Source: Corallococcus sp. AS-1-6 (GTDB lineage Bacteria > Myxococcota > Myxococcia > Myxococcales > Myxococcaceae). Taken from it: a DNA stretch of 64,000 bases. This document shows, piece by piece, positions 1,796 to 26,066 of this stretch. How positions within the stretch are numbered: position 1 is the first letter of the stretch; each line of letters begins with the position of its first letter. The stretch covers positions 51,886 to 115,885 of the forward strand of contig NZ_JAIQDE010000007.1 of NCBI RefSeq assembly GCF_020037015.1, read 5' to 3'. The position numbers and the translations under genes were made by a program. The notes below the pieces were generated by a model that was not told the origin of the DNA, ran no database searches, and was given only the letters and a program-made list of their open reading frames with translations.

Positions 1796-2008
1796 GGTGC
1801 GCGAATGCTACCGGCCCGTCCTCGCGGAAACTGTGAAGCGCTTCACAGGCGGCGTGGAGGCGGCCTGAAAGACAGCCAGGCGGCCAGGAGGAGTCATTGA
1901 ACAGGGATTGACGGACGTTCGCCACGTCTGTGTTCATCCCACCCGCCACGGCGGGGTGGACGCCGGGGATGGCGTGGCCGGACCGGTACGCCCTACAGTC
2001 CCGGGCCC

Positions 2009-9883: not shown

Positions 9884-10534
9884 ATGCCTGTCCTACGTGG
9901 TGCCGTGACCTTTTCGCGCTTCCGGACCGAGCCGGCCAAGGATGCGCCGTCCGACGTCAAGCGCTGGATGACCAAGGGACTCAAGTCCCATGCGTTCGAG
10001 CCCATCGACCGCCGCTCCGAGGAGGAGCGCGCCGCGGGGTTTGTCGAGCTGGAGAACCCGGAGTCCTCCGAGTTCGCCACCGGCAACCTCTTCTATGGCG
10101 AGTACGCCCTCTTCGCCTTCCGCATCGACACGCTGAAGGTGCCCGCGTCGATGATGAAGTCGGAGCTGGACAAGTGGTCCGCCGCCTTCGCCAAGGAGAA
10201 CGGCCGGCCGCCCGCGCGCGCGGAGAAGAACAAGCAGCGCGCGGAGCTCAAGCAGCTCCTGCGTCAGCGCGCGGTGCCGCGCACCAGCACGCTGGACGTG
10301 ACGTGGAACCTGAAGACGCACACGGTGCAGGTCTGGGCCGCGTCGCGCAAGACGGTGGATGAGATCTGCGTGGCGCTGGAAGGCGCCCTGGCGGTGAAGG
10401 TGATTGGCATCACGCCCGCGTCCATGGCGCAGCGCGCGGGCATCGACGAGAAGGCCCTGGGCCCCACGGCGGAGCTCATTGGCATGGACCTGCCGGCGAC
10501 GGCTTCGGTGGAGGGCGCCCATGGCGAGGCGTGA
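9884..10534 (+). CDS. RdgC-like recombination-associated protein, N-terminal part
   Basis: Block similarity to E. coli RdgC: VTFSRFR ~ MVYRLSR, LKSHAFEP ~ LASMAFTP, and a lysine/glutamate-rich helix. Ends at TGA 10532-10534 and overlaps the next ORF in another frame. Confidence 0.4.
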   Translation: MPVLRGAVTFSRFRTEPAKDAPSDVKRWMTKGLKSHAFEPIDRRSEEERAAGFVELENPESSEFATGNLFYGEYALFAFRIDTLKVPASMMKSELDKWSAAFAKENGRPPARAEKNKQRAELKQLLRQRAVPRTSTLDVTWNLKTHTVQVWAASRKTVDEICVALEGALAVKVIGITPASMAQRAGIDEKALGPTAELIGMDLPATASVEGAHGEA

Positions 10535-11210
10535 GCAGGCGAGGGAAGAGGCGGCGTTCGCGCGGGGCGATGTCGGCGTGGACGGCGCCGCCACGGAAGA
10601 GGAGAAGGACGAAGCCGAAGTCGAAAAAGGCAAGGCGCGCGAACAGCTCCTGCGCGGCCGGGCCTACCTGGGCCGCGAGTTCATGACGTGGCTGTTGTGG
10701 CGCTCGGAGTCGGGCGACCCGCTGGTCGAGCACGACGGCGCGGGCGTCGTCGTCCTCTTCCTGGGCAAGGTGGTGCTGCGGGGCGTGGCGGGCGACGTCA
10801 CGGAGATGAGCGCCAAGGGAACGCTGGCGCCGTATTCGGAGAACGTGCGCCACTCGCTGGACCGGGGCCTGCTGGTATCGCAGGCGCGGCTGCGCCTGTC
10901 GCACGGCGAGCGCGAGTACGAAGTCACGCTGGATTCGGAGTTCCTGGACATCCGCGCCGCCAAGCTGCCCGCGCTCATGACGGAGGAAGAGGATGATCAG
11001 CTCTCCGAGCGTCTGGAGTTGACCGAGCAGCTCTCCGCCATCGTGGACGCGCTGGTGCAGGACTTCCTGGCCGTGCGCGCCGGCCGCGCCTGGAGCAAGC
11101 AGGTGGTGCCCGCGATGAAGGAATGGATGAAGGGCGAGGAGAAGGGGAGCGACCTGCTCTCCAAGGCCGCCCGAGCCCGGGGCCGTGACGCCCGCGCCGC
11201 CCGGGGCTGA
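10521..11210 (+). CDS. RdgC-like protein, C-terminal part (second frame); its 3' end carries the island attachment repeat
   Basis: ATG 10521 overlaps the previous stop. 'REFMTWLLWRSESGDP' ~ RdgC 'ELTLTEWVRSGSAAQG', and the C-terminal helix LELTEQLSAIVDALVQDFL ~ FILMTGELAALIQNLIEGL. The last ~25 codons are duplicated at 29608-29681. Confidence 0.4.
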   Translation: MARREQAREEAAFARGDVGVDGAATEEEKDEAEVEKGKAREQLLRGRAYLGREFMTWLLWRSESGDPLVEHDGAGVVVLFLGKVVLRGVAGDVTEMSAKGTLAPYSENVRHSLDRGLLVSQARLRLSHGEREYEVTLDSEFLDIRAAKLPALMTEEEDDQLSERLELTEQLSAIVDALVQDFLAVRAGRAWSKQVVPAMKEWMKGEEKGSDLLSKAARARGRDARAARG

Positions 11211-11213
11211 GCG
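11131..11213. repeat. left copy of imperfect direct repeat (putative attL) covering the 3' end and stop of the rdgC-like gene
   Basis: 'agggcgaggagaaggggagcgacctgctctccaaggccgcccgagcccggggccgtgacgcccg(cgcgccgcc)cggggctga' compared with 29608-29681. Identical except gag/cac (2 nt) and a 9-nt indel. Confidence 0.8.
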
Positions 11214-11226
11214 CCTCCTGTTTGTC

Positions 11227-11467: not shown

Positions 11468-14400
11468 ATGGACGTTTTCGCGCTGCGGGACAGCGTCATC
11501 GGCGAGTACGAGCGGTTCGCCACATCATTCACCACGATTCGCGCCGCGGACCTGCGCACGAAGCTCAAGGCCTTCTATGCGGCAGGGACCTACTGGCCGG
11601 AGCCCCTGATCCAGCTGAACCCGCACTACCAGGAAGGCCGCACGCAGGCTGAACTGGTCAAGGGCGATGTCCTGCACCCGAAGTGCCCCGACCTGTTCCG
11701 CTCGACTGCGGGCCATCCTCTTCCGCTGCACAAGCACCAGGAACTCGCGGCGATCCTGGCCACGACGGGGGCGAGCTACGTCGTCACCACCGGCACAGGC
11801 TCAGGTAAATCCCTGTGCTTCTTCGTGCCCATCGTCAGCGCCGTGCTGAAGGAGCGTGACGCCGGGGCTCCTCGCAGAACACGCGCCATCATCATCTACC
11901 CGATGAACGCCCTGGCCAACTCGCAGCTCGAGGAACTTGAGAAGTATCTGGGCAAGTCCGGCGATGCGCCGGTCACCTACGCTCGCTATACCGGCACGGA
12001 AAAGCAGCAGGAGCGGGAAGCCATTGCGCGCAATCCACCCGATATCCTCCTGACGAACTTCATGATGCTTGAGCTGCTGATGACGCGGCAGGATCCCGTC
12101 GATCGGCAGGTGATGGCGAACTGCGAGGGGTTGCGCTTTCTCGTCCTCGATGAACTCCATACCTACCGTGGACGCCAGGGGGCGGATGTGGCGCTCCTCG
12201 TTCGACGCGTTCGGGAACGCCTCGCTCCGCAAGGGCTTCAGTGCATCGGTACGTCAGCCACGATGGCGAGCGCGGACTCCCTGCAGCAGGGCAGGAGTAC
12301 CAGCTCCGTCGTGAGCCGAGTCGCCTCACAGCTCTTCGGCGCGCAGGTGCCGGAGACGCACGTCATCACCGAGTGGCTGCGTCGCCAGACGACGGGCCCC
12401 CATCAGGTGGCAGCGCTGATGCCCTCACTCGCGAAGGCGCTCGAGCAGCCACTCGCGCGTGACGTGCGTGACTCGGTGTTGACCTCCCATCCGCTCTCCA
12501 TCTGGGTGGAGACCCGCCTTGGCATTACAGTCAACCCCGACGACCAGACATGGCGCCGCGCGAGGCCCCTCTCCGTCAGCGCCGCGGTCCAGCTCCTGGC
12601 CCAGGAGTCAGGCTGCCCGGAGAGCCTCTGTCGCGAGCGCCTGCGCCACTTCCTCCTCCTGAGCAGTCAGCCGGAGAAGGATCGTCGCGGCGACAAGACG
12701 GGGGCGACGAATCCCTTCTTCGCCTTCAAACTCCACCAGTTCATCTCAGGTGCCTCGAACGCATACGCGACCCTTGAGCCGCCTGGCGCCCGGGCAGTAA
12801 CGGTCGATGCGCAGAAGTTCCTCCCTGGGGCGGAGCAGAAGCGGCTCTATGCGGTCCATTTCTGCCGCCAGTGCGGCCATGAGTATCACCCGGTAAAGCT
12901 CAAGACGGACGGGCTGGCGCTCGAGTTCATCGACCGCTCCATCGATGATGCTCCTCCTGGCCGTGACGACGACGAGGAAGAGGAGACGTCCGCCGCCGAA
13001 AATGAAGAAGGAGAGCGGTTCGGATTCCTGACACGGGATGCGACGGAAGACCCCGAGTGGGACTTCAAGGGCAAGGATGAGACCTATCCAGAGTCGTGGC
13101 TGGATGGCAAGAACGCGCTCAAGGCTTCTCGTCGGCATCGGAGGCTTGAGCTCCATCGCGTCACGCCTACCGGCAAGACGGGATCCGAAGGGCAGCCCAT
13201 GTGGTTCCTCCCCGGCCGCTTCGGCTTCTGCGTCGTGTGCAAGGAGGTCCATGGGGGTACCTCGCGCGACCGCACGCGGCTGGCATCGCTGACAGCGGAA
13301 GGGCGCAGCTCCGCGACGACGGTGTTGACGTTGAGCTCCCTGCGATGGATGCACGGAGCTGGATCGGGCCTGGATGTATTTACCCGGAAGATGCTCGGCT
13401 TCTCTGATAACCGGCAGGACGCCGCGCTACAGGCAGGCCATTTCAACGACTTCCTCTTCGTCTGCATCTTGCGCGCGGGCTTTCTCGGTGCGCTCGCAGC
13501 CGCAGGCGAAAAGGGCCTCTCGAGCGCGGAACTCGGGGAGGCGCAGCAGCGCGCGCTGGGCTTCCATCGCCTCGACGACAGAGGGTTGCGCGGCGAATGG
13601 ATGAAGGATCCTGAAGCGAAGCCTTTCGCCCGGCTGTCGGCGGAGAAGTCCCTGCGCGAGGTCCTCGCCTACCGTGTGTGGTTCGACCAACGGCGCGGCT
13701 GGCGGTACACCAATCCCAACCTCGAGCAGCTCCGCCTGGTTGAAGTCGAATACGAGCACCTGGATGAGATCGTCTCGGACGAGTCTGCCTTCGCCCATGC
13801 GCCGGCCTTGCTCCGCGAGGCCACGCCCGACGTGCGCCGAGGCGTCTACCGTGTGCTGTTTGATCACATGCGTCAGTGGATGGCCGTCGAATCGTCGGTG
13901 CTGAACGCCACCTCGGTGGAGCAGCTTCGGGCCAATGCATTCTCCCAGCTCCGGACTCCCTGGGCCTTCGGGAGCGACGAGAAGACGCGGCCCTCCCGCT
14001 GGCTGATGGTGTCCGCACCATCCCGCAAAGGGCTGACCATGCGCGACGAGGACCTCGTCGTACGTGGTGGCAGCCGCAGCGCGTTGGGAAAGGCGCTCCG
14101 GTCGAGCCGGCATTGGGGGGGAGATGCGCGTGCCCGCACGCAGAGCGCCGCCGACCTGGAGCAGATCATCCAGGTACTGCTCGTCGCCGCCCGTGGCCTG
14201 GTCATTGAAGAGCCTACGCCCTTCGATGGGCACATGGGTTGGCGGCTGAAGGACGCCCACGTGCGTTTCAAGCTGGGCAGCGGGGAGGACCCGGAACGGC
14301 CTGATCGGATCAACCGCTTTTTCCGCGACCTCTACCGGTCCCTGGCGAAGCTGCTCGCATCCCCCTCGCACCCGCTGTTCGGGTTCGAAGCGCGCGAACA

Positions 14401-16726
14401 CACCGCCCAGGTCGAGGACGCCCGCCGGATCATCCGGGAGAAACGCTTTCGTTACGGTGACAAGGAGCGGCAGGAGCTTGCCGCCGACGCCGTGACGCTT
14501 GCCCAGCTCGACGAACCGAAGGAATTCCTTCCCGTCCTCTTCTGCAGCCCGACGATGGAGCTGGGGGTCGACATCTCGCAGTTGAACACCGTCTATCTGC
14601 GCAACGTGCCGCCGACGCCTGCCAATTACGCCCAGCGCAGCGGTCGCGCCGGGCGCAGCGGGCAGGCGGCCCTGGTGCTCACCTACTGTGCGGCCCAGAG
14701 CCCACATGACCAGTACTTCTTCCGGGACCCGCCGGGCATGGTGCATGGCGTCGTGCGGCCCCCGATGCTGGAGCTGGCGAACCAGGACCTTGTCGAAAGC
14801 CACCTGCACGCCATCTGGCTCGCCAACACGGCGCGTCCGCTTGATGACTCCATTGCGAAGCTCGTGAGGCTCGAACAGCGCCCGGAGTGGCCGCTCCAGG
14901 CCGACCTGACCCAGGCCCTCTCCGCGCCCGAAGTGACGGCGCGAAGCGCGGAGGCCATGACGCGCTTCTTGTCCATGCTGGAGGACGAACTCACCCCCGA
15001 AGCCGCGCCCTGGTTCGACGGTATCGAAGCGCTGGCCCGGCGCACGGCGTCGAACGCGTTCAAGCGCTTCGACGAGGCCTTCCGCCGCTGGAGGGGCCTC
15101 TACGAGGCGGCACACCTCCAGAAAGAGGAGTCACGCCGCGTCATTGATGCGCATACCAGCCGGGCGACAGAGAGGCGGGCCGCCGAACGAAGACACGGCG
15201 AGGCCGTCAACCAGCTCAACCTGTTGGATCAGGGGACGGACTCCGGACGCAGCGACTTCTACACGTACCGCTACCTCGCGACGGAGGGTTTCCTTCCCGG
15301 GTACAACTTCCCGCGATTGCCGCTCATGGCGTACGTGCCGGCGACCGAAGATGGGCGGGGCCGGCAGACCTATCTCCAGAGACCGCGCTTCCTGGCGCTG
15401 TCGGAGTTCGGTCCCCGCAGCCTCATCTACCACGAGGGGCGTGCCTATCGTGTCGTGCGGGCGCTGCTCTCGCTCTCCCATCCGACGGGTGGTGCGGACG
15501 CCAGGTTGCCCACGCTGTCGGTAAGGCTCTGCCGCGGCTGTGGGGCAGGGCACTTCTCCGTGGACCCATCGGTCTGCCATGCGTGCCGTCAGCCGTTGGG
15601 GGACGCCCTTCACGTGCGCGAGGTCTTCCGTATCGACAATGTCGGTACGAAGCGCGCTGAACGCATCACCGCCAATGACGAGGAGCGGCAGCGGCAAGGG
15701 TTCGATTTGCAGACCACCTTCGCCTGGGCCGACCGTGAGGGGCGCCCGGACGTGCGCGAGGGCGTGGCCAGGCATGCGTCCGGCGGGTTGCTGTGGCTGA
15801 CGTACGGCCCCAGCGCCACCATCACCCGGTTGAACCTCGGGCTGCGCCGGCGTGCTCGGCGCAGCGAGCACGGCTTCACCATCGATCCCGTGAGCGGTGA
15901 TTGGGAGAAGGGGGGGGACGAAGAGAAGGATGGAAACGACGTCGGCAACCCCCGCCAGCGCATCGTGCCAATGGTGCAGGACCGGAAGAACGCGCTGCTC
16001 GTGCGGCCCGCCGCCGCGCTGGACGAGCGGTCGATGGCGACGCTCCAGTACGCGCTCCTCCGTGGCTTGCAGGCGCACTTCCAACTTGAGGAGGCGGAGG
16101 TGCTCGGCGAGCCCATGCCAAACCGTGACGACCGGCGCGGCATCTTCTTCTACGAGGCGACCGAGGGCGGGGCAGGCGTGCTGACGCAGGTGCTCGCCCA
16201 GCCCGAGGCGCTCGCAGTGGTGGCCCGGCGAGCGCTGGAGGTCATGCACTTCGACCTTGAGCAGGGGGTTCCGGCGGCGGCGGCGGAGCTGAAGGACAAG
16301 GCGGGCACGCACTGCGTCGCGGCCTGCTATCGCTGTCTCATGTCCTATTACAACCAGCCGGACCATGAGCAGATCGACCGCCGTGACGTTCCCGTCCGAG
16401 AGCTGCTCCTGCGTCTGGCCCGTGGCGTGACCGAGCTTCGCGAGCCGATTCCGGTCACGCCCGCCGAACTCCTCGGCGGGGGCCCCCGCGTGCGGTTCCT
16501 GCATCGCCTCGACAGGAAGGGGCTGCCGCGGCCCGAGGCCACGGACTGGGAGGGCGCCGATTTCGTATGGAAACAGGATCGGGTCGTCGTGTGTCTTGGA
16601 GCACCAGCACCCTCCTTGTTGGAGCGCTTTGATGCCCTGTCATTGACGTCCCTGGTCTTCGGCGATGAGGAGCAAGAGTGGGCGGGGCGCTTCGTCGAGC
16701 TGTCGAAGGCACTGGGCAAGGGCTGA
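11468..16726 (+). CDS. SF2 DEXH-box helicase fused to a C-terminal Cys4 zinc-finger domain resembling DUF1998/MrfA (DISARM DrmA+DrmB-like / Druantia DruE-like)
   Basis: Walker A 'TTGTGSGKSLCF', motif Ia 'YPMNALANSQ', motif II 'LVLDELHTYRG', motif VI 'QRSGRAGRSGQ'. C-terminal cysteine cluster 'CRGCG...CHACRQ' and 'CVAACYRCLMSYYNQPDHEQ', typical of DUF1998. Confidence 0.8.
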   Translation: MDVFALRDSVIGEYERFATSFTTIRAADLRTKLKAFYAAGTYWPEPLIQLNPHYQEGRTQAELVKGDVLHPKCPDLFRSTAGHPLPLHKHQELAAILATTGASYVVTTGTGSGKSLCFFVPIVSAVLKERDAGAPRRTRAIIIYPMNALANSQLEELEKYLGKSGDAPVTYARYTGTEKQQEREAIARNPPDILLTNFMMLELLMTRQDPVDRQVMANCEGLRFLVLDELHTYRGRQGADVALLVRRVRERLAPQGLQCIGTSATMASADSLQQGRSTSSVVSRVASQLFGAQVPETHVITEWLRRQTTGPHQVAALMPSLAKALEQPLARDVRDSVLTSHPLSIWVETRLGITVNPDDQTWRRARPLSVSAAVQLLAQESGCPESLCRERLRHFLLLSSQPEKDRRGDKTGATNPFFAFKLHQFISGASNAYATLEPPGARAVTVDAQKFLPGAEQKRLYAVHFCRQCGHEYHPVKLKTDGLALEFIDRSIDDAPPGRDDDEEEETSAAENEEGERFGFLTRDATEDPEWDFKGKDETYPESWLDGKNALKASRRHRRLELHRVTPTGKTGSEGQPMWFLPGRFGFCVVCKEVHGGTSRDRTRLASLTAEGRSSATTVLTLSSLRWMHGAGSGLDVFTRKMLGFSDNRQDAALQAGHFNDFLFVCILRAGFLGALAAAGEKGLSSAELGEAQQRALGFHRLDDRGLRGEWMKDPEAKPFARLSAEKSLREVLAYRVWFDQRRGWRYTNPNLEQLRLVEVEYEHLDEIVSDESAFAHAPALLREATPDVRRGVYRVLFDHMRQWMAVESSVLNATSVEQLRANAFSQLRTPWAFGSDEKTRPSRWLMVSAPSRKGLTMRDEDLVVRGGSRSALGKALRSSRHWGGDARARTQSAADLEQIIQVLLVAARGLVIEEPTPFDGHMGWRLKDAHVRFKLGSGEDPERPDRINRFFRDLYRSLAKLLASPSHPLFGFEAREHTAQVEDARRIIREKRFRYGDKERQELAADAVTLAQLDEPKEFLPVLFCSPTMELGVDISQLNTVYLRNVPPTPANYAQRSGRAGRSGQAALVLTYCAAQSPHDQYFFRDPPGMVHGVVRPPMLELANQDLVESHLHAIWLANTARPLDDSIAKLVRLEQRPEWPLQADLTQALSAPEVTARSAEAMTRFLSMLEDELTPEAAPWFDGIEALARRTASNAFKRFDEAFRRWRGLYEAAHLQKEESRRVIDAHTSRATERRAAERRHGEAVNQLNLLDQGTDSGRSDFYTYRYLATEGFLPGYNFPRLPLMAYVPATEDGRGRQTYLQRPRFLALSEFGPRSLIYHEGRAYRVVRALLSLSHPTGGADARLPTLSVRLCRGCGAGHFSVDPSVCHACRQPLGDALHVREVFRIDNVGTKRAERITANDEERQRQGFDLQTTFAWADREGRPDVREGVARHASGGLLWLTYGPSATITRLNLGLRRRARRSEHGFTIDPVSGDWEKGGDEEKDGNDVGNPRQRIVPMVQDRKNALLVRPAAALDERSMATLQYALLRGLQAHFQLEEAEVLGEPMPNRDDRRGIFFYEATEGGAGVLTQVLAQPEALAVVARRALEVMHFDLEQGVPAAAAELKDKAGTHCVAACYRCLMSYYNQPDHEQIDRRDVPVRELLLRLARGVTELREPIPVTPAELLGGGPRVRFLHRLDRKGLPRPEATDWEGADFVWKQDRVVVCLGAPAPSLLERFDALSLTSLVFGDEEQEWAGRFVELSKALGKG

Positions 16727-16747
16727 CCGGCGGGGTACCACCACACC

Positions 16748-19531
16748 ATGAACACCATCACCTGGAGCCCGGGGAGCCTCGTACGGGCTCGTGGCCGGGA
16801 GTGGATCGTCCTCAACGGCGGCAGTGCGGAGACCCTCCGGGTCCGGCCGGTGGCTGGCAGCGAGGACGACGCCATCCTCATTCACCTCCCGCTGGAGGCG
16901 GAGCCGGTGTCGGACGCCGCCTTCCCCCCGCCGACGCTGGCCCAGCGCGCGAGCCAGGATGGGGCGCAGTTGCTGCGTGACGCGCTCACGCTCTCGATGC
17001 GACGGGGCGCGGGTCCCTTCCGCGGCTTCGGGCAGATCTCCATCCAGCCCCGCGCCTACCAGCTCGTGCCGCTGATGATGGCCTTGCGGCAGGAGACGGT
17101 GCGCCTGCTGGTGGCTGACGACGTTGGTGTTGGCAAGACCATCGAGGCGGCGCTCATCGTCCGCGAACTGCTGGACCGCGGCGACGTGGACCGGTTCAGC
17201 GTGCTGTGTCCGCCACACCTCGTGGAGCAGTGGGTGCATGAGCTGGACGTGGGCTTCCACCTGCGTGCGGTCGCCGTCACGGCGGCCAATGCGTCGCGCC
17301 TGGAAAAGGCAATCCCCCAGACGACGAGCCTCTTCGAGGTACATCCCTTCACCGTCGTCAGCCTCGACTACATCAAGAGCCAGAACCGCCGGGACGAGTT
17401 CCTCCGCAGTTGCCCCGGCTTCGTCATCGTGGACGAGGCGCACACCTGCGCGGCGACGGGTCAGGGACGGCATCAGCGCTATGAGCTTCTGCGCGCCCTC
17501 TCGCAGCGCGCGGACCGTCACCTCGTGCTGTTGACGGCCACGCCCCACAGCGGTGACGAGGCGGGCTTCTACCGGCTGCTCGGCTTGCTCGACCCTGCGT
17601 TCCAACGGCTGGAAGTGGTGCAGGGGGACGAGCGCAACGCATTGCGCGAGCGCCTGGCCCGGCACTTCGTGCAGCGGCGACGCCCGGATCTCGACGAGTG
17701 GCGAGAGGGAGAACTCTTCCCGGACCGGCAGACCCGGGAGCTGACGTACACCCTCTCTGGCGCCTGGGAGCGCTTCTTCGACGCGGTGCTCGACTACTGC
17801 GCCACCGTCATCGAGTCGGCCAGCGGGGATGCCCGGCGCCAGCGCCTGAATTTCTGGGGCACGCTGGCCCTCATGCGCTGCGTGGCGTCGAGCCCACGGG
17901 CCGCGGTGCAGGCCCTGCGGACCCACGCGACGCCAGGAGAAGAGGCTGAAGCGGAGCTGGAGGAGCGGCTCTTCGACGGAGGCGACGACGCCCTCCCGGA
18001 GGATGATCTTGAGCCCCCGGCGGCGACTGGAGACGCGGACCTCCAGAAGCTCATCGCCCAGGCCGAGGAGCTCAGCGGGCAGTCGGGAGATCCGAAGCTC
18101 AAGACCCTCGTGGGGCATGTGAAGGAGCTGCTCGGGGAGGACTTCGCGCCCGTCGTCTTCTGCCGCTACATCGCCACGGCGCATTACCTGGGCGCCCACC
18201 TCGCGAAGCAGTTCCCGGACGTGATGATCAAGGTGGTGACGGGCGAGCTGACGCAGGACGAGCGCAGGGAGGCCGTGGCGGCGCTGCGGGCTGAGGAAGG
18301 CAAGGTCCTCCTCATCGCGACCGATTGCCTCTCCGAGGGCGTCAACCTGCAGGAGTCCTTCAACGCGGTCATCCACTACGACCTCTCGTGGAATCCGATG
18401 CGGCATGAGCAGCGGGAAGGCCGCGTGGACCGCTACCTCCAGAGCCGGCCAGTCGTCCGGGCGACGCTCCTCTACGGTCAGAACAACCCCGTCGATGGCG
18501 CGGTGCTCGAGGTCATCCTGCGAAAGGCAGAGCGGATCCGCCGGGAACTCGGGGTGCCGGTGCCGCTCCCCGACGAGGGCCACTCGTTGACGCAGACGCT
18601 GATGCGCGCGGTGCTGCTGAAGCATCGGAAGCCTGGCAGACAGGCGATGCTCGACTTCGGGGGAGACGCGGCGGCCACCATCGAGGCCACGTGGCAGAGC
18701 GCGGCCGAACGGGCCCAGAAGAACCGCACCGTCTTCGCGCAGAAGCGCCTGCGGCCCGGCGACGTCCTGCCCGAGTACGAGCGCGTGCGTCAGGCCATCG
18801 GCGGGCGGGAGGACGTCGAGCGCTTCGTCTCACGGGCCATGGCCCGGCTTGGCGCCGCGCCGGAGCGCCTCAAGCGCGGCGTGCGTCTACAGCTCGCCGC
18901 GCTTCCGGCCGAGGTTCGCGAGCGGCTGGAGAATGAAGGGCTGGCAGGCTCGCTGCTGGTGGATTTCGAGCCTCCCGGTGGCGAGCACCGCCGACTTGTT
19001 CAGCGGGCCCATCCCCTCGTGGCGGTGCTGGCCGAGACCTTGCTCGAGCGGACCCTGACCTCCGCCGGAGACGGCACCTCGACCGACCCTTCCGTCCTGG
19101 GCCGCCTCGGGTGCTGGGAGTCCTCCGGCGTCACGGAGCGCACGACGGTGGTGCTCCTGCATCCGCGTCACCAGCTCACCACGGTGAAGGGCTCGCGGAC
19201 CCACACGCTGCTGGTCGAGGAGTCGACGGCCGTCTCATGGGGCGCGAGCGGCCCGCCTCGTGAAGGGGCGGAGGCGTTGGCGCTCCTTGCGCTCCCTCCC
19301 GCAGGGGATCCCCCTGCGCACGTGCGTGACCGCGAGCTCACCCGGGCGCTCGCGTTGGTGGAGTCGTCGCGAGAGCAGCTCGCCGCCGTGGCGGAGGGCC
19401 GGGCCCAGGCCCTGCTCGCGGACCACCGGCGCGTCCGGGAGGCGGCAGGCGACCGGGGAAGCTACTCGGTCAAGGCGCTGCTCCCGGTGGATGTCATCGG
19501 TGTCTTCGTGCTGCTCCCGGAGGTGAAGTGA
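16748..19531 (+). CDS. SNF2-family helicase (DISARM DrmD-like)
   Basis: '[19 protein letters not shown]' (motif I), '[12 protein letters not shown]' (DEAH), '[11 protein letters not shown]' (motif III), and the helicase-C region '[14 protein letters not shown] ... [11 protein letters not shown]'. Starts 22 nt after the helicase stop. Confidence 0.85.
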
Positions 19532-22500
19532 TGGCGTCGAGACGTCTCCGCCGCGAGTCGCGGCTCGCCTTCGATGCGCTCGCCATCGAGGGCGGCCTCC
19601 TGTCTCCCGAGTGGCTCGCGAAGGTGGCGCAGCTCGAGGCGCCCCGGCAGGCGCCCGCGGACTACGACATCGAAAAGGGGTTGCAGATCCGCGACGAGAT
19701 TGGCCGGTATTGGCGCATCGCGGAGCCGAAGTGGCGGGACTTCGTGGCCGCGCGGGCCGCGGGCGGTGACTCGCGGGCCGCCGCCGAGGACTTCGTCACC
19801 GGGCTGCTGTCCAAGGTGTTCGGGTTCGGGTCATTGAAGCAGGTGGGCACCGTCACCTCCGGCGAGCGCTCGTACCCCCTCGGGTGGGCGGCGCTCGATG
19901 GAAGAGTGCCTGTGGTCATCGCCGGGCCGCTGCCACCCGGCGCGAAGGAGAGCGCGCTCGACAAGCTCTCGGCCAGTTTTGGCGAGGAGTCCCGGCGGCG
20001 GACGCCCTTCGGCCTGTGTCAGGAGTTCCTCAACGCCAACGACGGCGCGATGTGGGGGCTCGTCACGGACGGGCTGACGCTGCGCGTGCTCCGCGACAAT
20101 GTCAGCCTCACCCGGCCCGCATGGCTGGAGGTGGACCTGCAGGCCATCTTCACGGGCGGCCGGTTCGCGGACTTCGCCGCGCTCTGGCTGCTCATGCACC
20201 AGACGCGCTTTGGCCGGTCAGGACAGGCATCTTCGGAATGCCCGCTCGAGCAATGGCGCGCCCTTGGACGGGAGGAAGGGACGCGGGCCCGGGAGCAGCT
20301 CCGCGATGGCGTCGAGGCGGCGCTGCGGTCGCTGGGGCAGGGGTTCCTCGCCCACCGTGACAACCAGGCGCTGCGTCAGGCGCTCGACCAGGGGACGGTG
20401 ACGGAGCACGACTACTTCCAGCAGCTCCTGCGGCTCGTCTACCGGCTGATCTTCCTGTTGACCGTGGAGGAGCGTGGGCTCTTGCATCCGGAGGGCACCC
20501 CGGATGAGGCGAAGGCGCTCTATGCCGGCGGCTACTCGCTCCAGGGAATGCGGGAGCGGGTGGTGCGCCGCAGCGCGCATGATCGCCACCACGACGCCTG
20601 GGAGGCAGTGAAGGTCTCCTTCCGGGGGCTGGCCACGGGACAGCCGGCACTCGGGCTGCCGGCGCTCGCGGGCATCTTCGCGCCCGCGCGGTGCCGGGAC
20701 CTGGACGCGGGCCGCATCGAGAACCGCTTCTTCCTTCATGCGCTCTATCGTTTGTCCTGGCTGCAGGAGGCCGGCGGGCTGGCCCGCGTGAACTGGCGCG
20801 ACATGGGCCCGGAGGAACTGGGGAGCGTCTACGAGAGCCTTCTCGAACTCACCCCGCGCGTCGTGAACGGGGGCCGTGAGTTCACCTTCGCCGAGGGCGC
20901 GGAGGGCAAGGGGCACGCCCGGAAGACGACGGGGAGCTACTACACGCCGGACAGCCTCGTGCAGGTGCTGCTCGACTCGGCCCTCACGCCGGTCATGGAG
21001 CGCGCGGAGGCCGCGCGTCCGGACGCGAAGGCAGAGGCGCTGCTGGGGCTGACGGTGGTGGATCCCGCGTGCGGGAGTGGTCACTTCCTGCTCGCGGCGG
21101 CGCGGCGGCTGGCTGCACGGGTGGCCCAACACGAAGCGAAGGGCACCGCATCACCGAAGCAGTACCAGCATGCCCTGCGCCAGGTCGTGAGCCGCTGCAT
21201 CTTCGGCGTCGACCTGAACCCTCTCGCGGTGGAACTCTGCAAGGTGGGCTTGTGGATGGAGGCCGTCGAGCCCGGCCTTCCCCTCTCGTTCCTGGACTCC
21301 CACGTCCAGTGCGGCAACGCGCTGCTGGGCACCCTGCCGGGGCTCATGGACGGCGGCATCCCCGACGAGGCCTGGGCGCCTATTGGCGAAGATGACCGGA
21401 AGACGTCCAGCGCGCTGAAGAAGCGCAACAAGGTGGCGAAGAAGCAAGCCCCGTTGCCGCTTGGGGTGGCCCGCGAGGAGTCACTGGTGCTGGAGAAGGC
21501 CGTGGTGGCCCTCGATTCGGCGCAGGACCTGGACGTCACGGCCCTGGCGAAGAAGGAGGCGGACTGGGCGGCGCTGCGAGGGTCAAAGGAGTTCGCCCAC
21601 CTGAAGCTCGTCGCGGACACCTGGTGCTCGACCTTCGTGTGGCCGAAGCCCGCGCCGACGGCGAAGGTGGTGGAGGTTGCCCCGACGGAGGATGGATGGC
21701 GGCTGCTGCGGGACGGGGAGGTCGAACCGTCCCCTCTGATGGTCGAGACGGTGCGAGGGCTCACTCGGCGGTATGGCTTCTTCCACTGGCAGCTCGCGTT
21801 CCCGCAGGTCTTCGCTCGTGGCGGTTTCGACGTCGTGTTGGGCAACCCGCCCTGGGAGCGGGTGAAGTTGCAGGAGCAGGAGTTCTTCGCGTCGCGCAGT
21901 GCGGCCATTGCGTCCGCAGAGAACGCGGCGGTGAGGAAGAAGCTCATCGCGAAGCTGCCGGAGGAAGACCCCCGCTTGTGGGAGGAGTGGAGCCAGGCCA
22001 GCCGGGAGGCGGAGGGACAAAGCCACTTCGTGCGGCAGTCGGGCCGGTTCCCTCTGTGCGGCAAGGGTGACGTGAACACCTATGCGCTGTTCGCGGAGCA
22101 CAACCGAACCGTAACTGCCCGAAATGGGCGTGCCGGCTTTATCGTGCCCACGGGGCTTGCCACTGACGATACGACCAAGGAGTACTTCGGTACGTTGATC
22201 TCCGGACGTGAACTTGCGTCATTCTTCGGCTTCGAGAACGAGGAGTTCGTCTTTCCCGGCGTCCACCACGCATTCAAGTTCGCGCTGCTGACCATCGACC
22301 GTGGCGGTGGTACTGAAAACGCCGATCTCGTGTTCTTCGCGCGGCAGGTGTTGGCATTGGCCGATACATCAAGGCACTTCACGCTTTCCTCCGCTGACTT
22401 TGAACTCCTCAATCCGAACACGAAGACCTGTCCGACGTTCCGCTCGCAGCGGGACGCGGAGCTGAATCTGCGCATGTATTGGCGCGCAGGCGTATTGTGG

Positions 22501-23529
22501 CGTGAGGACGACGCGGCCGGAGGAAATCCCTGGGGTTTGCGCTTCATGGCCATGATTCATATGGCGAACGATTCAGCCCTGTTCTGGTCTCGCGATCGTC
22601 TTGAGGCTGCTGGATTCACCCTGCACGGCAACCACTTCAAGAAGGAGCTGGAGACCTGGCTCCCGCTCATGGAGGCCAAGATGGTCCACCAGTTCGACCA
22701 TCGGTTCGGCACGTATGAGGGGCAGACCCAGGCGCAGGAGAATCAGGGGAAACTGCCAGAGTTCGATGACGCGGCGCACGCCGAACCAGAGCGACTCACG
22801 CACCCGTACTACTGGGTCGCCGCCACGGAGGTCCATGAACGCGTGAAGGGTGTTTGGGCCCAGGATTGGTTCATCGGCTGGCGGGACATCTGCCGGAGCA
22901 CGGATCAGAGGACTGTGATTGGTGCAATCTTCCCCAGGGCCGCAATTGGTCATACGACTCCTCTCCTGTTCACCAAGCAGCCGCCGAGTATGGCTGCTGC
23001 CCTCTACGCGAACCTCATGGCGTTTGTTTTCGACTATGCCGCGCGTCAGAAGGTGGGGGGGACACACCTGACCTACGCATACTTCAAGCAGCTTCCCGCA
23101 CTAAAGCCTGAGCAGTTCACTGCTGGATGCGCCTGGTCGAAGGAGGTCGGTGTTGCTGAGTGGATCGCTCCCCGTGTCGTTGAGCTGACCTACACGGCCT
23201 GGGACCTTGAAGGCTTCGGGACCGACGTGGGCTTCGAAGGGCCGCCGTTCCGCTGGGATCCCGAGCGCCGTGCGCTCCTGCGTGCCGAACTCGACGCCGC
23301 CTTCTTCCACCTCTATGGCCTCTCGCGCGACGACACGGACTACATTCTCGAAACGTTCCCGATCGTGAAACGGAACGACGAGAAGAAGCATGGCGAGTAC
23401 CGCACGAAGCGCCTCATCCTCGAGCGCTATGATGCGCTGGCCGCCGCCAGCCGGACCGGCGCATACGAATCCCCGCTCGTCCCGCCGCCAGCGCATGCTT
23501 CGCAGCGCCATCCCTCGCGTTCCCGATGA
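19531..23529 (+). CDS. large N6-adenine DNA methyltransferase, gamma-class / Eco57I-like (DISARM DrmMI-like)
   Basis: Motif I 'VVDPACGSGHFLLAAARRL' precedes motif IV 'VLGNPPWERV' (NPPW). The GTG/ATG start overlaps the SNF2 stop (GTGATG). The N-terminal ~450 aa has no recognisable motif and the C-terminal region is long, as in DrmMI-like proteins. Confidence 0.85.
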   Translation: MASRRLRRESRLAFDALAIEGGLLSPEWLAKVAQLEAPRQAPADYDIEKGLQIRDEIGRYWRIAEPKWRDFVAARAAGGDSRAAAEDFVTGLLSKVFGFGSLKQVGTVTSGERSYPLGWAALDGRVPVVIAGPLPPGAKESALDKLSASFGEESRRRTPFGLCQEFLNANDGAMWGLVTDGLTLRVLRDNVSLTRPAWLEVDLQAIFTGGRFADFAALWLLMHQTRFGRSGQASSECPLEQWRALGREEGTRAREQLRDGVEAALRSLGQGFLAHRDNQALRQALDQGTVTEHDYFQQLLRLVYRLIFLLTVEERGLLHPEGTPDEAKALYAGGYSLQGMRERVVRRSAHDRHHDAWEAVKVSFRGLATGQPALGLPALAGIFAPARCRDLDAGRIENRFFLHALYRLSWLQEAGGLARVNWRDMGPEELGSVYESLLELTPRVVNGGREFTFAEGAEGKGHARKTTGSYYTPDSLVQVLLDSALTPVMERAEAARPDAKAEALLGLTVVDPACGSGHFLLAAARRLAARVAQHEAKGTASPKQYQHALRQVVSRCIFGVDLNPLAVELCKVGLWMEAVEPGLPLSFLDSHVQCGNALLGTLPGLMDGGIPDEAWAPIGEDDRKTSSALKKRNKVAKKQAPLPLGVAREESLVLEKAVVALDSAQDLDVTALAKKEADWAALRGSKEFAHLKLVADTWCSTFVWPKPAPTAKVVEVAPTEDGWRLLRDGEVEPSPLMVETVRGLTRRYGFFHWQLAFPQVFARGGFDVVLGNPPWERVKLQEQEFFASRSAAIASAENAAVRKKLIAKLPEEDPRLWEEWSQASREAEGQSHFVRQSGRFPLCGKGDVNTYALFAEHNRTVTARNGRAGFIVPTGLATDDTTKEYFGTLISGRELASFFGFENEEFVFPGVHHAFKFALLTIDRGGGTENADLVFFARQVLALADTSRHFTLSSADFELLNPNTKTCPTFRSQRDAELNLRMYWRAGVLWREDDAAGGNPWGLRFMAMIHMANDSALFWSRDRLEAAGFTLHGNHFKKELETWLPLMEAKMVHQFDHRFGTYEGQTQAQENQGKLPEFDDAAHAEPERLTHPYYWVAATEVHERVKGVWAQDWFIGWRDICRSTDQRTVIGAIFPRAAIGHTTPLLFTKQPPSMAAALYANLMAFVFDYAARQKVGGTHLTYAYFKQLPALKPEQFTAGCAWSKEVGVAEWIAPRVVELTYTAWDLEGFGTDVGFEGPPFRWDPERRALLRAELDAAFFHLYGLSRDDTDYILETFPIVKRNDEKKHGEYRTKRLILERYDALAAASRTGAYESPLVPPPAHASQRHPSRSR

Positions 23530-24314
23530 CGCTCACCCTGGTCCAAAGGTCGCTGCTGGAGAAGGTCGCCCAGGACAACGGCTTTGACGTCCCGGAGACG
23601 GCCGTGGACCCGTGGCTGTCCTTTGCGAGTACCCAGGTCCCGTTGCGGCTGTGGCTGGGCGCCATGGATGATGCGTGGCTCGTCGCGTTTTCACAGCCAG
23701 CCGTCGCGGCCGAACTGCTTCCGTTGACCGGCGAGACCTCCGCCGCGTTGCCTTCAGGGGCCGCGGCGGCCGGGCGGGTCGCGGACCTCATGCAGCTTCA
23801 CCGCGTGGTCCGACGCGCGTACCAACTCTCGGGCACGTTGCCCGACGAGCTGTTCCACCTGTTCGAGCGCGTCACGAAGGACCTGCCTCAGACGACCGAA
23901 GTCGAGCGCCTCACGGTGCAGCGGGTGGGGCAGGACCTCTTCCGGGAGGGACTTCTGCGCTATTGGGAGGGCCGCTGCGCGGTCACCGGACTCTCCGAGC
24001 CCGAACTCCTGCGCGCCAGCCACATCAGACCGTGGGCGAAGTGTGAGACCGCCCAGGAGCGCCTCAACGTGTTCAACGGCATCCTGCTGGCGGTCCACCT
24101 CGACGCCGCGTTCGACCGCGGGTTCATCACTTTCGAGGACGGGGGACGAATGGTCATCTCCTCGGCCCTGTCCCCGGAGGACTCCCAGCGGTTGGGCTTG
24201 AATCCCGGACTCTCGTTGACGCGGATTGACCCACTGCACCGCACGGCGCTGGCGTGGCACCGGGCGAACTGTTTCCGAGGGCGTGTGAGCAAGGCGGATG
24301 ACCTTCGCGGATGA
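23526..24314 (+). CDS. HNH nuclease (HNH_2-type) with an uncharacterised N-terminal domain
   Basis: 'WEGRCAVTGLSEPELLRASHIRPWAKC...NGILLAVHLDAAFDRGFITFEDGG' matches the HNH_2 pattern (C..tG...aHIkPw...N.i.L....H..FD.g). Its ATG overlaps the methyltransferase stop (ATGA). Confidence 0.7.
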   Translation: MTLTLVQRSLLEKVAQDNGFDVPETAVDPWLSFASTQVPLRLWLGAMDDAWLVAFSQPAVAAELLPLTGETSAALPSGAAAAGRVADLMQLHRVVRRAYQLSGTLPDELFHLFERVTKDLPQTTEVERLTVQRVGQDLFREGLLRYWEGRCAVTGLSEPELLRASHIRPWAKCETAQERLNVFNGILLAVHLDAAFDRGFITFEDGGRMVISSALSPEDSQRLGLNPGLSLTRIDPLHRTALAWHRANCFRGRVSKADDLRG

Positions 24315-24623
24315 AGCACCACCCAGGCCGTGGGATATCGAGAAGCAAGGCCTCCCATGAGGCTCATATCCCTGCCACTCGGATGACGGGAGCGCGGCTC
24401 GGGCAAGCTACGGGCATGGGCGGCAGGAGGCTGCCTGCTCCGCCTGCTGGTTCCGGATCCAGACAGGAATCGTGGCATGACACATCTGCCCATGGGCCGT
24501 CGTGGCCCCGGGTGGCTGGTGGCGCGCCCTCCGTGCAATGCATTGGCCCGCGCTCCGCGGCCCTGTCGGACCGAATGGGAAGACTCGGTCCTTTTCCCGG
24601 CTGGGCCTTCCAAGGAGACGCCG

Positions 24624-26066
24624 ATGTTCATGCGCTGGAGTTGGGTCATCGTGCTGTTGCTGTTACCCGGCGCGGGAGGGGCGCAGGAGGTTGCCGTCCC
24701 AGAGGACCTTGACGCGACCGTGCGCAGGCTGGAGGAGGCGATTTCGGCCGAGTTTTTCGGCGAGGAAGAAGAGGGATCGGCACCTCCCGAAGAGGAGGCT
24801 TCACCGTCCGCCACGTCCGACTCGATGGCGCCATGGACGAACCTGCTGCGCATGGACGCGGCGACGTTGACGTTGCTGCCCCGAAGGGGAGCGGGTACCG
24901 CAGAAGGCTTCGTACAGGTGGAGCCCATGGTTGCCTTGGGGAAGGGGGAGTCGTCGCGCCTCATCCTCGGGGCGCCCGTGCGGCTTCGGCTGTGGGGTGG
25001 AGGGGAAGGGGCGGGCCTCGTGCGGAAGGAGGACTGGGACACGCTGTCCGACTGGGGGCAGGTGGTGCGCCTCTTCATGGTGGGTGGGGACACGCCCGAC
25101 TCGGTGTGGTTGGGGATGATGGAGGGCTACTCCCTCTTGTCCGGGCACCTGGTGCGGCGCTACGGCAACCGCGTCAACCCCGACTCCCACCCTGCCGGCG
25201 TCATCGCGACGGGAACGCTGGGGCCCGTGTACGCGGAAGCCTTCGCCTCGGACGTGCTGAGCGCTCGCCTGATGGGAGCGGAGGTCGCCCTGGACGTGCA
25301 GCACATCCTCTTCGGCCGCCCCTCTGTCCCGGGACGCTACACGCTGGCGCTGTCGGCGGTGCATGACTGGGGGCGGGGAGGCGGTACTCCGAGGCCCAGG
25401 ACGCTGGCGCACCTGGACGTCACCGCCGTGGTGCTGCGGCGCGGGGGCAAGGGCCAGAGGCTGGAGGCGCACCTGCTGGGCGGGTGGGGCGGCCGCCCGG
25501 CCGAGGGCGGAGCGTGGGGCGCGGTAGCGGGCGTGGGCGTGGATGCGTTGACGCCGACGGTGGACCTGCGGGCGCGTCTGGAAGGGCGCCTGCAGCGCGG
25601 AGGCTTCCGTCAGGGGGTCTTCGGCCCGGACCATGAGCTGGCGCGCTTCCAGGTGGCGGGCCCGGCCTCCGTGCCGCTCGCGGAGGCGTCCTTCCCAGAG
25701 GGGACTTCCGTCTACGGGGAGGTGATTCTCGGCTGGGACGCGGTGCGGCTGAGTGGCATGCGCCAGCGTCACCTCTTCCTTTCCCTGGGCGTGGAAGCCT
25801 TCTCCTGGGGCCGCGTGGACATGGACGGGCGGGTGGAGGCGCAACTCTTCCACCGGAACTTCAGCCTGGGGGTCGGCGGACTGGCGACGGCCATGGGCCA
25901 GTCCGGAGCGCGCTACCTCGTTTCGGGGGAGGCCCGGTGGCGCTTGCTGGGCGGCAACCTCTACGCGTTGGGGCAGGGCGGCACGCTGCTGTTCCCCTCG
26001 CCGGAGGGGACACTGCGGCCGGGGGCCTTCGCGGCCTTGGGGCTGGGGGTGGACAATGCGCGCTGA
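24624..26066 (+). CDS. secreted hypothetical protein, Gly/Arg-rich, possible outer-membrane beta-barrel (SitB-like position)
   Basis: Signal peptide MFMRWSWVIVLLLLPGAGGAQE. Alternating hydrophobic pattern toward the C-terminus. High GC3. Confidence 0.45.
   Translation: MFMRWSWVIVLLLLPGAGGAQEVAVPEDLDATVRRLEEAISAEFFGEEEEGSAPPEEEASPSATSDSMAPWTNLLRMDAATLTLLPRRGAGTAEGFVQVEPMVALGKGESSRLILGAPVRLRLWGGGEGAGLVRKEDWDTLSDWGQVVRLFMVGGDTPDSVWLGMMEGYSLLSGHLVRRYGNRVNPDSHPAGVIATGTLGPVYAEAFASDVLSARLMGAEVALDVQHILFGRPSVPGRYTLALSAVHDWGRGGGTPRPRTLAHLDVTAVVLRRGGKGQRLEAHLLGGWGGRPAEGGAWGAVAGVGVDALTPTVDLRARLEGRLQRGGFRQGVFGPDHELARFQVAGPASVPLAEASFPEGTSVYGEVILGWDAVRLSGMRQRHLFLSLGVEAFSWGRVDMDGRVEAQLFHRNFSLGVGGLATAMGQSGARYLVSGEARWRLLGGNLYALGQGGTLLFPSPEGTLRPGAFAALGLGVDNAR

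Follow-up and report, generated by a model that had tools for sequence, protein, structure and literature searches.

Which known defence system, if any, accounts for four consecutive genes of Corallococcus sp. AS-1-6 that encode two helicases, a DNA methyltransferase and an HNH nuclease, and which of these proteins would cut DNA? A preliminary description of the locus, which lies in a 64,000-nucleotide stretch that was analysed as a whole (the window), had suggested an undescribed DISARM variant or a hybrid related to Druantia. We place the locus in ARMADA Type I, a published family, and consider it probable that it is an anti-phage system of this type with the order armC-like, armA-like, armB-like, drawn from a subclade in which a fourth, co-inherited HNH_2 gene provides the cleaving nuclease.

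A tightly packed operon of four genes

The four genes (g1 to g4) are co-directional on the + strand and tightly packed, spanning positions 11468 to 24314, and each occupies the reading frame whose third positions are GC-rich. The preliminary description had reported four consecutive, coupled genes in this interval, and both the ORF coordinates and the overlaps were confirmed: the g2/g3 junction reads GTGATG, with TGA overlapping ATG, and g3 and g4 share an ATGA overlap. Only the first gap needs correction, as the g1/g2 spacer measures 21 nt rather than 22 nt. The arrangement is far beyond chance: among approximately 160 related loci, each one of sufficient length shows the same order of genes.

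Neither neighbour of the operon was retained as part of the system. The upstream ORF (10404-11210) lacks homologues in the related loci and matches no family. It is followed by a terminator-like hairpin (11203..11217, + strand), found with a consensus scan, which is weak evidence for the 5′ boundary of the operon. The number of terminators equals the shuffled expectation and a sigma-70 promoter scan gave no match, and both of these results are uninformative for a myxobacterium. Downstream, g5 to g7 (24477-29576) are without homologues in related loci except for one homologue of g5. That single homologue sits upstream in its related locus (L020). With a signal peptide, a lipobox and an 11-nt overlap, g5 to g7 fit a myxobacterial sitBAI toxin cassette, judged by sequence features. 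No tRNA, integrase or transposase was found within the 64 kb, and therefore no island boundary can be defined.

Domain composition of the helicases and the methyltransferase

The domain calls of the preliminary description for all four proteins (a DExH helicase with DUF1998, an SNF2 helicase, an N6-adenine methyltransferase with NPPW and an HNH_2 nuclease) agree with Pfam. The first gene, g1 (11468..16726, + strand; 1752 aa; MBZ4372325.1 / WP_223762343.1), encodes an ArmC-like YprA-family DExH helicase with a fused OB-CON-DUF1998 module. Pfam matches DEAD at aa 90-267, Helicase_C at aa 1018-1065 and the MZB/DUF1998 zinc-binding domain (PF09369, E 3.4e-10) at aa 1526-1624 (16043..16339, + strand); the Walker A motif reads GSGKS, and DELH forms motif II. 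The C-terminal DUF1998-like domain proposed earlier is thus present, yet it is not the Cys4 domain it was taken for: the segment holds a CxxxCxxC cluster at aa 1616-1623 (C1616, C1620, C1623), and the clean Cys4 ribbons lie elsewhere in the protein, as inserted zinc modules (C466/C469/C588/C591 and C1355/C1358/C1370/C1373). The region around the CxxC pairs at aa 466-469 and 588-591 has no Pfam match, and the pairs are consistent with BrxA-like, zinc beta-barrel and MarR-like insertions between the RecA domains. The nearest solved relatives of g1 are 9tu7 and 9wae, both helicases of about 2000 aa, and MrfA/YprA (6znp).

Directly 3′ of g1 in the window and in all related loci is the SNF2 gene, g2 (16748..19531, + strand; 927 aa), with 56-67% identity in nearly all of them. 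It encodes an ArmA-like SNF2 helicase (BrxHII/RapA/DrmD-like) with Pfam SNF2-rel_dom and Helicase_C domains, a GVGKT Walker A motif and a DEAH box. The third gene, g3 (19531..23529, + strand), encodes 1332 aa from the ATG used by NCBI, or 1333 aa from an alternative GTG at 19528. Its product, an ArmB-like, PglX/DrmMI-like N6-adenine DNA methyltransferase, matches Eco57I / N6_Mtase in Pfam and belongs to the gamma class, since motif I (DPACGSG) precedes the NPPW motif at aa 773. The N-terminus of g3 has no match in Pfam, and a phmmer search of g3 against PDB returned nothing.

Assignment to ARMADA Type I

The text and tables of Bell et al. (2025, bioRxiv 10.1101/2025.09.15.676423) define ARMADA Type I by a YprA homologue, followed by a BrxHII-like helicase and then a PglX-like methyltransferase. 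Table S1 of that study lists MBZ4372325.1 from Corallococcus sp. AS-1-6 as an ‘ARMADA Type I helicase’, and this protein is g1 of the window. As the operon type is published and its helicase is catalogued, the locus is an ARMADA Type I locus and no longer an undescribed system. Its YprA-clade helicase is recognised by the Table S1 listing, by matches to DruE models and by its structural kinship to MrfA/YprA; PF09369 shares one polypeptide with DEAD and Helicase_C, as expected for OB-CON-DUF1998 fused to the helicase core; and the order of YprA, SNF2 and methyltransferase genes is the same in the window and in related loci. The preliminary description had combined a gene set like that of class 1 DISARM with a DruE-like helicase, a view that coincides exactly with the rationale in the text of Bell et al., where ARMADA is defined as a ‘missing link’ between DISARM and Druantia.

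The resemblance to ARMADA Type I extends to the Vsr fold at the C-terminus of the helicase. As published in text and tables, however, the type consists of three genes and its nuclease is the helicase Vsr domain (labelled ‘active?’), whereas g1 of the window has lost the catalytic core of its Vsr domain, and the operon closes with a fourth gene, encoding an HNH_2 nuclease, that co-evolves with the helicase. Related loci differ further from the published form in that other defence genes are inserted ahead of the HNH gene, after the methyltransferase. Within the text and tables of the ARMADA papers searched, the HNH gene goes unmentioned, and the figures of Bell et al. might depict one.

ARMADA Type II, the armABCD system of Escherichia coli, is the only ARMADA type with experimental phage protection in the published text and tables (Bell et al. 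2025; mBio 2026, PMC13463889). According to the same sources, its defence is non-abortive and needs all of its genes, including the NPPW motif of the methyltransferase. The window has the homologous trio of SNF2 ArmA, methyltransferase ArmB and YprA ArmC, but not the order armA-armB-armC-armD. ArmD, a RelE-like domain fused to a GajB/UvrD-like helicase, is absent from the window, and the published text describes Vsr and EEP domains in ArmC and no HNH for Type II. With the YprA gene first, an HNH gene after the methyltransferase and no UvrD-like gene nearby, the locus is not a Type II system.

A decayed Vsr core and a conserved HNH gene

A sequence search of the g1 C-terminus against Pfam found nothing, and fold comparison identifies it as a Vsr-type (PD-(D/E)xK) domain (16505..16723, + strand) in which the fold is kept and the catalytic core is lost. 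Residue D1698 is retained, L1710 stands where Vsr-intact relatives carry Asp, and no His follows G1711. Pfam DUF559/MTES_1575 matches are limited to the tails of loci without an HNH gene. From these residues, the Vsr-type domain in the g1 clade is probably a catalytically dead remnant.

The last gene, g4 (23526..24314, + strand; 262 aa), encodes an HNH_2 nuclease (Pfam, E 1e-12) with an N-terminal double-wing-like domain (aa 1-105), a helical linker and a VcaM4I-type HNH module (aa 124-253). While the N-terminus has no Pfam match in a sequence search, its fold is that of the MotA C-terminal domain or YjbR-like proteins in fold comparison and differs from modified-base readers of the PUA/EVE/SRA type. 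The C-terminal 130 residues are homologous to the HNH module of VcaM4I (E 6e-33). The catalytic residues are intact in g4; across the family four are invariant, and H191 is present in at least 90%. The HNH module is predicted to be active, given this conservation together with the homology to VcaM4I.

Of 57 loci, 42 carry a full-length g4 homologue 3′ of the methyltransferase, and 11 of the 15 loci without one have <3.2 kb of sequence past the methyltransferase. Homologues are also present where helicase identity is down to 43-48%, in Mesorhizobium, Croceicoccus and A. caldus plasmids. Pairwise distances of g4 track those of the helicase (Mantel r 0.93, compared with 0.97 for SNF2). By these sequence comparisons, a large ARMADA I subclade conserves the HNH gene at the 3′ end of the operon, and the gene co-evolves with the helicase. 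Among evaluable loci, the HNH gene occurs in none of the 27 with an intact Vsr/DUF559 core and in 45 of the 64 without it; in the other 19 of these 64, no HNH gene was detected. The associated Fisher p of 6e-11 is descriptive only, as the loci are phylogenetically non-independent; the anticorrelation is essentially a clade split and may represent one evolutionary event. We infer that the HNH protein acts as the effector nuclease. The preliminary description had put the HNH in the slot that the PLD nuclease DrmC occupies in DISARM: a nuclease role is supported by the loss of the Vsr core in the HNH clade, but the slot is not DrmC-like, as the nuclease of ARMADA is the Vsr domain fused to the helicase.

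Alternative roles of the HNH gene

The g4 protein could instead work on its own, as a Type IV (modification-dependent) restriction enzyme that merely travels with a three-gene ARMADA I system and covers phages with modified DNA, like Type IV enzymes in BREX loci. Such a complement would be useful, given that ARMADA II and Druantia III give no protection against hypermodified T-even phages (PMC13463889). The two-domain build of sensor and nuclease in VcaM4I- or TagI-type HNH enzymes is shared by g4, and a sensor-like N-domain joined to a VcaM4I-type HNH is an architecture typical of autonomous modification-dependent restriction enzymes. The reader of VcaM4I, however, is an EVE (PUA) domain, whereas g4 carries an unrelated double-wing-like domain, so that the PUA/EVE-type sensor fused to HNH that marks the VcaM4I family is lacking and the N-domain is not a modified-base reader of the PUA, EVE or SRA type; unlike VcaM4I, g4 is also operon-linked to a methyltransferase and two helicases. 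On two plasmids, proteins similar to g4 occur without ARMADA: the partner in P. versutus pBEN is an SMC/LmuB-like ATPase, next to DarTG, and the partner in Rhizobium SU303 is a TIR protein. Because of these, g4-type nucleases can, as far as gene context indicates, work outside ARMADA. In most related loci, moreover, other genes part g4 from the methyltransferase. Against autonomy, 15 plasmid records contain a full-length homologue, which in at least 11 of them lies in an ARMADA I context, and g4 is confined to the clade whose built-in nuclease is probably dead. Genes inserted ahead of the HNH gene differ between close relatives, as true cargo of the slot turns over, while g4 co-evolves with the helicase to the degree seen for a core gene. 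On balance, we regard an autonomous Type IV enzyme as somewhat unlikely.

A second alternative would make g3 and g4 a simple restriction-modification pair, with helicases that are accessory or separate, or would assign the locus to BREX or to the Type IIG/ISP systems. The ATGA coupling of g3 and g4 would suit such a pair, and PADLOC matches g3 with a Type IIG model (C-terminal region, 165 bits) and g4 with a ‘Type II restriction enzyme HNH’ model. Yet it is g1-g2-g3 that is always contiguous, with g3 and g4 separated in most related loci, and all helicases are essential in ARMADA II. No nuclease domain was detected in g3. Its matches to PglX are weak (56 bits against a cutoff of 400 in NCBIfam) and no PglZ, BrxC or BrxL is present. 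Membership in BREX and in Type IIG, tested with Pfam, NCBIfam and PADLOC, was rejected on the defining features of each. Two findings had been named in the preliminary description as ones that would count against its reading, a C-terminal region that is not DUF1998 and genes of a known restriction-modification or BREX family; in these searches the region does match DUF1998 and the genes are not of the BREX or Type IIG family. We consider this second alternative quite improbable.

Comparison with Dpd, Druantia and DISARM

PADLOC scores of g2 are 605 bits for the DpdE model PDLC02853 (end to end), 261 for DrmD and 171-199 for BrxHII, while in NCBIfam it scores below the cutoffs for DISARM_DrmD (304 bits, cutoff 610), DpdE (201, cutoff 500) and DpdJ (84, cutoff 800). 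With g2 alone matching DpdE and no other gene of the Dpd set (DpdA/B/C for modification, DpdD-K) at the locus, the 7-deazaguanine modification/restriction (Dpd) system was rejected.

The kinship of the locus to Druantia and class 1 DISARM is genuine. DruE models are the best PADLOC matches for g1 (286 bits, against at most 55 bits for DrmA models), and DruE is the closest known defence helicase, sharing inserted zinc modules, a fused DUF1998 and the C-terminal position of the nuclease. In Druantia III, however, DruE carries PLD nuclease domains and has no SNF2 or PglX-like methyltransferase partner, and PADLOC found no match to DruH (type III), DruA-D (type I) or DruM/F/G (type II) in 1-36 kb of the window. 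With class 1 DISARM (DrmD, DrmMI, DrmA, DrmB, DrmC) the locus shares an SNF2 protein, an N6-adenine methyltransferase, a YprA-type helicase, a DUF1998 module and, presumably, the ability to tell unmethylated DNA apart. DISARM encodes the helicase and DUF1998 in two genes, the window encodes them as one fused polypeptide of 1752 aa, and the order of the genes is not the same. The g1 protein resembles DruE/MrfA more than DrmA, and neither the locus nor its flanks contain a gene with a PLD domain (DrmC). The g2 and g3 proteins are homologous to DrmD and DrmMI (212 bits to g3 in PADLOC). A new class 1 DISARM variant or an undescribed DISARM/Druantia hybrid is therefore highly improbable: the gene set parallels DrmD, DrmMI and DrmA plus DrmB, and DruE, DrmMI and DrmD models match g1, g3 and g2, but this exact combination is published as ARMADA Type I with g1 catalogued, and the locus has no split DrmA/DrmB, no DrmC, a DrmD match below the NCBIfam cutoff and no Druantia partner gene.

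Proposed mode of action

For ARMADA Type I with an HNH effector, homology suggests that the methyltransferase would mark host DNA at N6-adenine within a specific motif. Unmodified DNA, whether incoming or replicating, would then be engaged by the SNF2 translocase and by the YprA helicase, a relative of MrfA, DrmA and DruE that translocates along ssDNA. Cleavage would not be carried out by the C-terminal Vsr-type domain of the helicase, as proposed for other ARMADA systems, with that domain apparently dead in this clade; by homology, the separate HNH protein would cut the DNA instead. The conserved double-wing-like domain of g4 may bind DNA or dock onto the complex, and defence would presumably act directly and non-abortively, in line with the measurements on ARMADA Type II.

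More tentatively, the HNH-bearing loci may form a distinct, undescribed subtype of ARMADA Type I, in which an HNH nuclease acting in trans, equipped with a novel double-wing-like domain for sensing or docking, would have taken over the function of a decayed Vsr nuclease in cis. The methyltransferase-HNH junction often hosts other defence genes (Septu-like, LmuB-like), and under the same proposal it would be a conserved landing pad for nested modules, among them Septu-like PtuAB, LmuB/SMC-like ATPases and YhcG nucleases, which may cooperate with the same HNH effector.

Implications for the ARMADA family

The main value of this analysis is the correct filing of the locus, which older tools would call DISARM-, Druantia- or even Dpd-like and which belongs to ARMADA Type I, named in 2025. 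In a large subclade that spans phyla, a separate HNH protein, and not the Vsr domain of the helicase, is probably the nuclease that acts as effector, and a three-gene clone of a system from the HNH subclade might therefore be inactive. The locus would also illustrate how, within a single defence family, one nuclease module is displaced by another, and how one site repeatedly takes up further defence genes.

Operon structure and classification

ORF calling recovered the four consecutive plus-strand genes at the positions given in the preliminary description, and Pfam agreed with each of its domain calls: DEAD, Helicase_C and MZB/DUF1998 in the YprA/DruE-like helicase g1 (11468-16726), SNF2 and Helicase_C in the second helicase g2 (16748-19531), Eco57I/N6_Mtase in the methyltransferase g3 (19528/19531-23529, NPPW at residue 773) and HNH_2 in the nuclease g4 (23526-24314). 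The GTGATG (TGA/ATG, g2/g3) and ATGA (g3/g4) overlaps were also as described, while the spacer between g1 and g2 measures 21 nt rather than 22. All four ORFs lie in the frame of high third-position GC in this 70% GC sequence, and the NCBI annotation of contig JAIQDE010000007.1 has the same genes (MBZ4372325.1 to MBZ4372328.1). Helicase g1 carries the motifs GSGKS (Walker A), DELH and QRSGRAGR.

With PADLOC, g1 scores 286 bits against DruE models versus 55 bits against DrmA, g2 matches DrmD- and BrxHII-type models, and g3 matches DrmMI; judged by these models, the scores pointed away from DISARM proper. The PADLOC v2 model PDLC02853 ‘DpdE’ also matches g2 end to end (605 bits), with no Dpd genes present beside it. 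Older model sets may mislabel ARMADA I loci as Dpd, DISARM or Druantia fragments. The gene order of ARMADA Type I described by Bell et al. (2025; PMC12458937), with a YprA helicase, a BrxHII-like helicase and a PglX-like methyltransferase, is exactly that of the operon, and their catalogue lists g1 itself (AS-1-6, JAIQDE010000007.1, K8612_11765, MBZ4372325.1). We assign the operon to ARMADA Type I with very high confidence. The kinship with DISARM and Druantia proposed earlier is sound; the idea of an undescribed system falls, since ARMADA is published and g1 catalogued. Both the operon type and this exact helicase are thus already in the literature, and as a variant inside a known family the operon is unsurprising to a specialist. 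ARMADA Type II, the sole type tested experimentally, is non-abortive and needs all four of its genes and the methyltransferase NPPW motif for defence (PMC12458937; PMC13463889).

Genomic surroundings

The operon lies in an ordinary chromosomal setting, preceded by PBP4 and prolyl oligopeptidase genes and followed at some distance by a chemotaxis cluster, and no tRNA, integrase or transposase was found in the 64-kb window. Directly 3′ is an unrelated sitBAI-like outer-membrane-exchange toxin cassette (24477-29576, plus strand). In its first gene, g5, a type I signal peptide is encoded from nt 24624. The product of g6 is a lipoprotein (Met at 26056, lipobox LTAGC), and this gene overlaps the stop of g5 by exactly 11 nt, the overlap reported for Myxococcus xanthus sitB/sitA (PMC5562445). 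A candidate immunity gene, g7, spans 28242-29576 with an ATGA overlap. Pfam, NCBIfam and PADLOC gave no match for any of these three genes. A myxobacterial DUF5953 gene (29738-30568, minus strand) follows, adjoining a gene (30815-33427, plus strand) for an 870-aa bacterial protein that is homologous to the eukaryotic major vault protein and has Vault repeat domains as well as the MVP shoulder domain (E 6e-45). The gene at 34633-36264 (plus strand), with an extremely high third-position GC of 0.99, fuses a LysM domain to a T6SS VgrG3-like C-terminal domain of peptidoglycan hydrolase type. Near the start of the window, a divergent pair (899-3004) could be a nucleotide-signal-controlled effector: one protein (899-1807, minus strand) has two cNMP-binding domains, and its 367-aa partner ends in a TIR/nucleoside 2-deoxyribosyltransferase-like region (PADLOC ‘Effector TIR’, 47.6 bits).

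A conserved HNH gene in an ARMADA I subclade

Scanning reference genomes with g1 gave 469 relatives, from which 80 loci were kept. Their hosts include Myxococcota, Acidobacteriota, Verrucomicrobiota, Gemmatimonadota and several proteobacterial classes, and by tblastn the order g1, g2, g3 is constant wherever the contig permits. A full-length g4 homologue, mostly 47-60% identical, lies downstream of the methyltransferase in 42 of the 57 loci with a complete methyltransferase; 11 of the other 15 are not evaluable because <3.2 kb of sequence follows the methyltransferase. Plasmid-borne relatives in Mesorhizobium, Croceicoccus and Acidithiobacillus caldus (43-48% helicase identity) also end with an HNH gene, and A. 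caldus SM-1 was included as ARMADA I by Bell et al. (PMC12458937). No HNH gene was found in the 35-39% identity relatives from Deinococcus, Rhodococcus, Chroococcidiopsis and Thermus; in Chroococcidiopsis and Thermus the gene order is reversed, as described for many cyanobacteria and archaea (PMC12458937). An ARMADA I subclade thus has the HNH gene as a conserved component.

Some relatives are interrupted. On the A. caldus SM-1 megaplasmid (L082, 16587-22362) an IS21 element splits the operon between the YprA and SNF2 genes, and a Phd/VapC toxin-antitoxin pair is nested between the SNF2 and methyltransferase genes; in D. radiodurans MP1 (L083) the methyltransferase is split and adjoins an IS630 element.

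Between methyltransferase and HNH gene, 35 of the 42 HNH-positive genome loci have a gap of 0.5-3 kb occupied by other defence genes on the same strand. The inserts are Septu-like PtuA and PtuB (22 loci), an LmuB/SMC-like ATPase (eight) or, in a few loci, YhcG/PDC-S02 nucleases, a second HNH or a nitrilase; ten loci have none, as in the window. Across 44 loci, pairwise distances of helicase and HNH correlate (Mantel r 0.93) almost as strongly as those of helicase and SNF2 (0.97). Cargo class is not clade-specific, being shared with the nearest helicase neighbour in only 24 of 44 cases. The helicases of Myxococcus sp. Y35 and Cystobacter fuscus, for instance, differ by just 6%, yet the former has its HNH gene adjacent and the latter carries a Septu-like insert. 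Inheritance of the HNH gene thus follows the core, whereas the cargo in front of it turns over.

Decay of the helicase Vsr-type domain

Bell et al. assigned the ARMADA nuclease to a Vsr-type domain at the helicase C-terminus, marking Type I "active?" in Table S2 (PMC12458937). Within the last 200 helicase residues, the Vsr-like Pfam family DUF559/MTES_1575 was matched in all four HNH-minus loci and in none of the four HNH-plus loci, window included. In the alignment HNH-minus tails retain "rPDFaf...aIFvDGp.HD", whose conserved Asp and His residues correspond to Asp51, His64 and His69 of E. coli Vsr. HNH-plus tails escape the Pfam match because the "DG..H" segment is missing, with a ~10-residue deletion; g1 keeps D1698, has L1710 at the Asp position and lacks a His after G1711.

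The sample was enlarged by a metagenome scan seeded with the Rhodococcus helicase, and all loci were scored. Among 91 evaluable loci, an intact Vsr core occurred in 27 without and 0 with an HNH gene, and an absent core in 45 with and 19 without. This pattern separates whole clades and may stem from few evolutionary events, which makes it suggestive rather than statistical proof. Of the 19, 13 are members of the window's clade in which sequence continues for only ~3.2 kb past the methyltransferase; the remaining six have a variant helicase tail. None of the 79 complete helicases in the window's clade has the core. These sequences suggest that in loci with an HNH gene the nuclease of the helicase itself is dead. 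A sub-group of the HNH-minus ARMADA I clade (metagenome loci L105, L107-L111 and L142) has the variant tail ‘RPDFAF...AVFVEES...’, with the first Asp kept and ‘DG..H’ replaced, and no HNH gene was detected in these loci.

Possible role of the HNH nuclease

The g4 family is large (3517 matches) and conserved along its full ~260 aa, with H166, N184, D193 and D197 invariant and H191 in at least 90% of sequences; g4 has all five catalytic residues. The family profile matches the HNH module of VcaM4I (E 6e-33), a modification-dependent enzyme that joins a sensor domain to HNH (PMC7897488). We infer a mechanism in which g3 would methylate host adenines, g1 would translocate on ssDNA, by analogy with MrfA, DrmA and DruE, g2 would act as a dsDNA translocase or remodeller, and g4 would cleave the DNA in place of the dead Vsr domain. 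For Druantia III, recent studies describe DruE as acting on replication intermediates that contain ssDNA. It is probable that g4 functions as part of the system, and there is about an even chance that it is the effector replacing Vsr.

Autonomous, Type IV-like action of g4 is a less likely but credible rival, and occurrences of the nuclease outside ARMADA argue against an integral role. When plasmids were searched from the HNH side, at least 11 of the 15 records with full-length homologues had an ARMADA I context, but two, Paracoccus versutus pBEN and Rhizobium sp. SU303, hold the nuclease outside ARMADA, and the g4-type nuclease is thus a portable module. In pBEN (L087, 12990-15759) an SMC/LmuB-like ATPase gene and an HNH gene have DarT-DarG and conjugation genes as neighbours, and no ARMADA gene occurs within 13 kb; in SU303 (L088, 14962-16871) the HNH gene adjoins a CAP12-type TIR protein and an Abi gene. 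Each pair may represent a small, so far undescribed defence module of two genes, with the nuclease in common.

Returning to g4 as a component of ARMADA I, the main text and supplementary tables of Bell et al. and the mBio 2026 text (PMC13463889) make no mention of an HNH partner. Relative to the text and tables of these papers, three features appear to be new: conservation of the HNH gene, its complementary relation to Vsr decay, and the slot that holds nested cargo. The findings on this subclade are useful to anyone testing ARMADA Type I.
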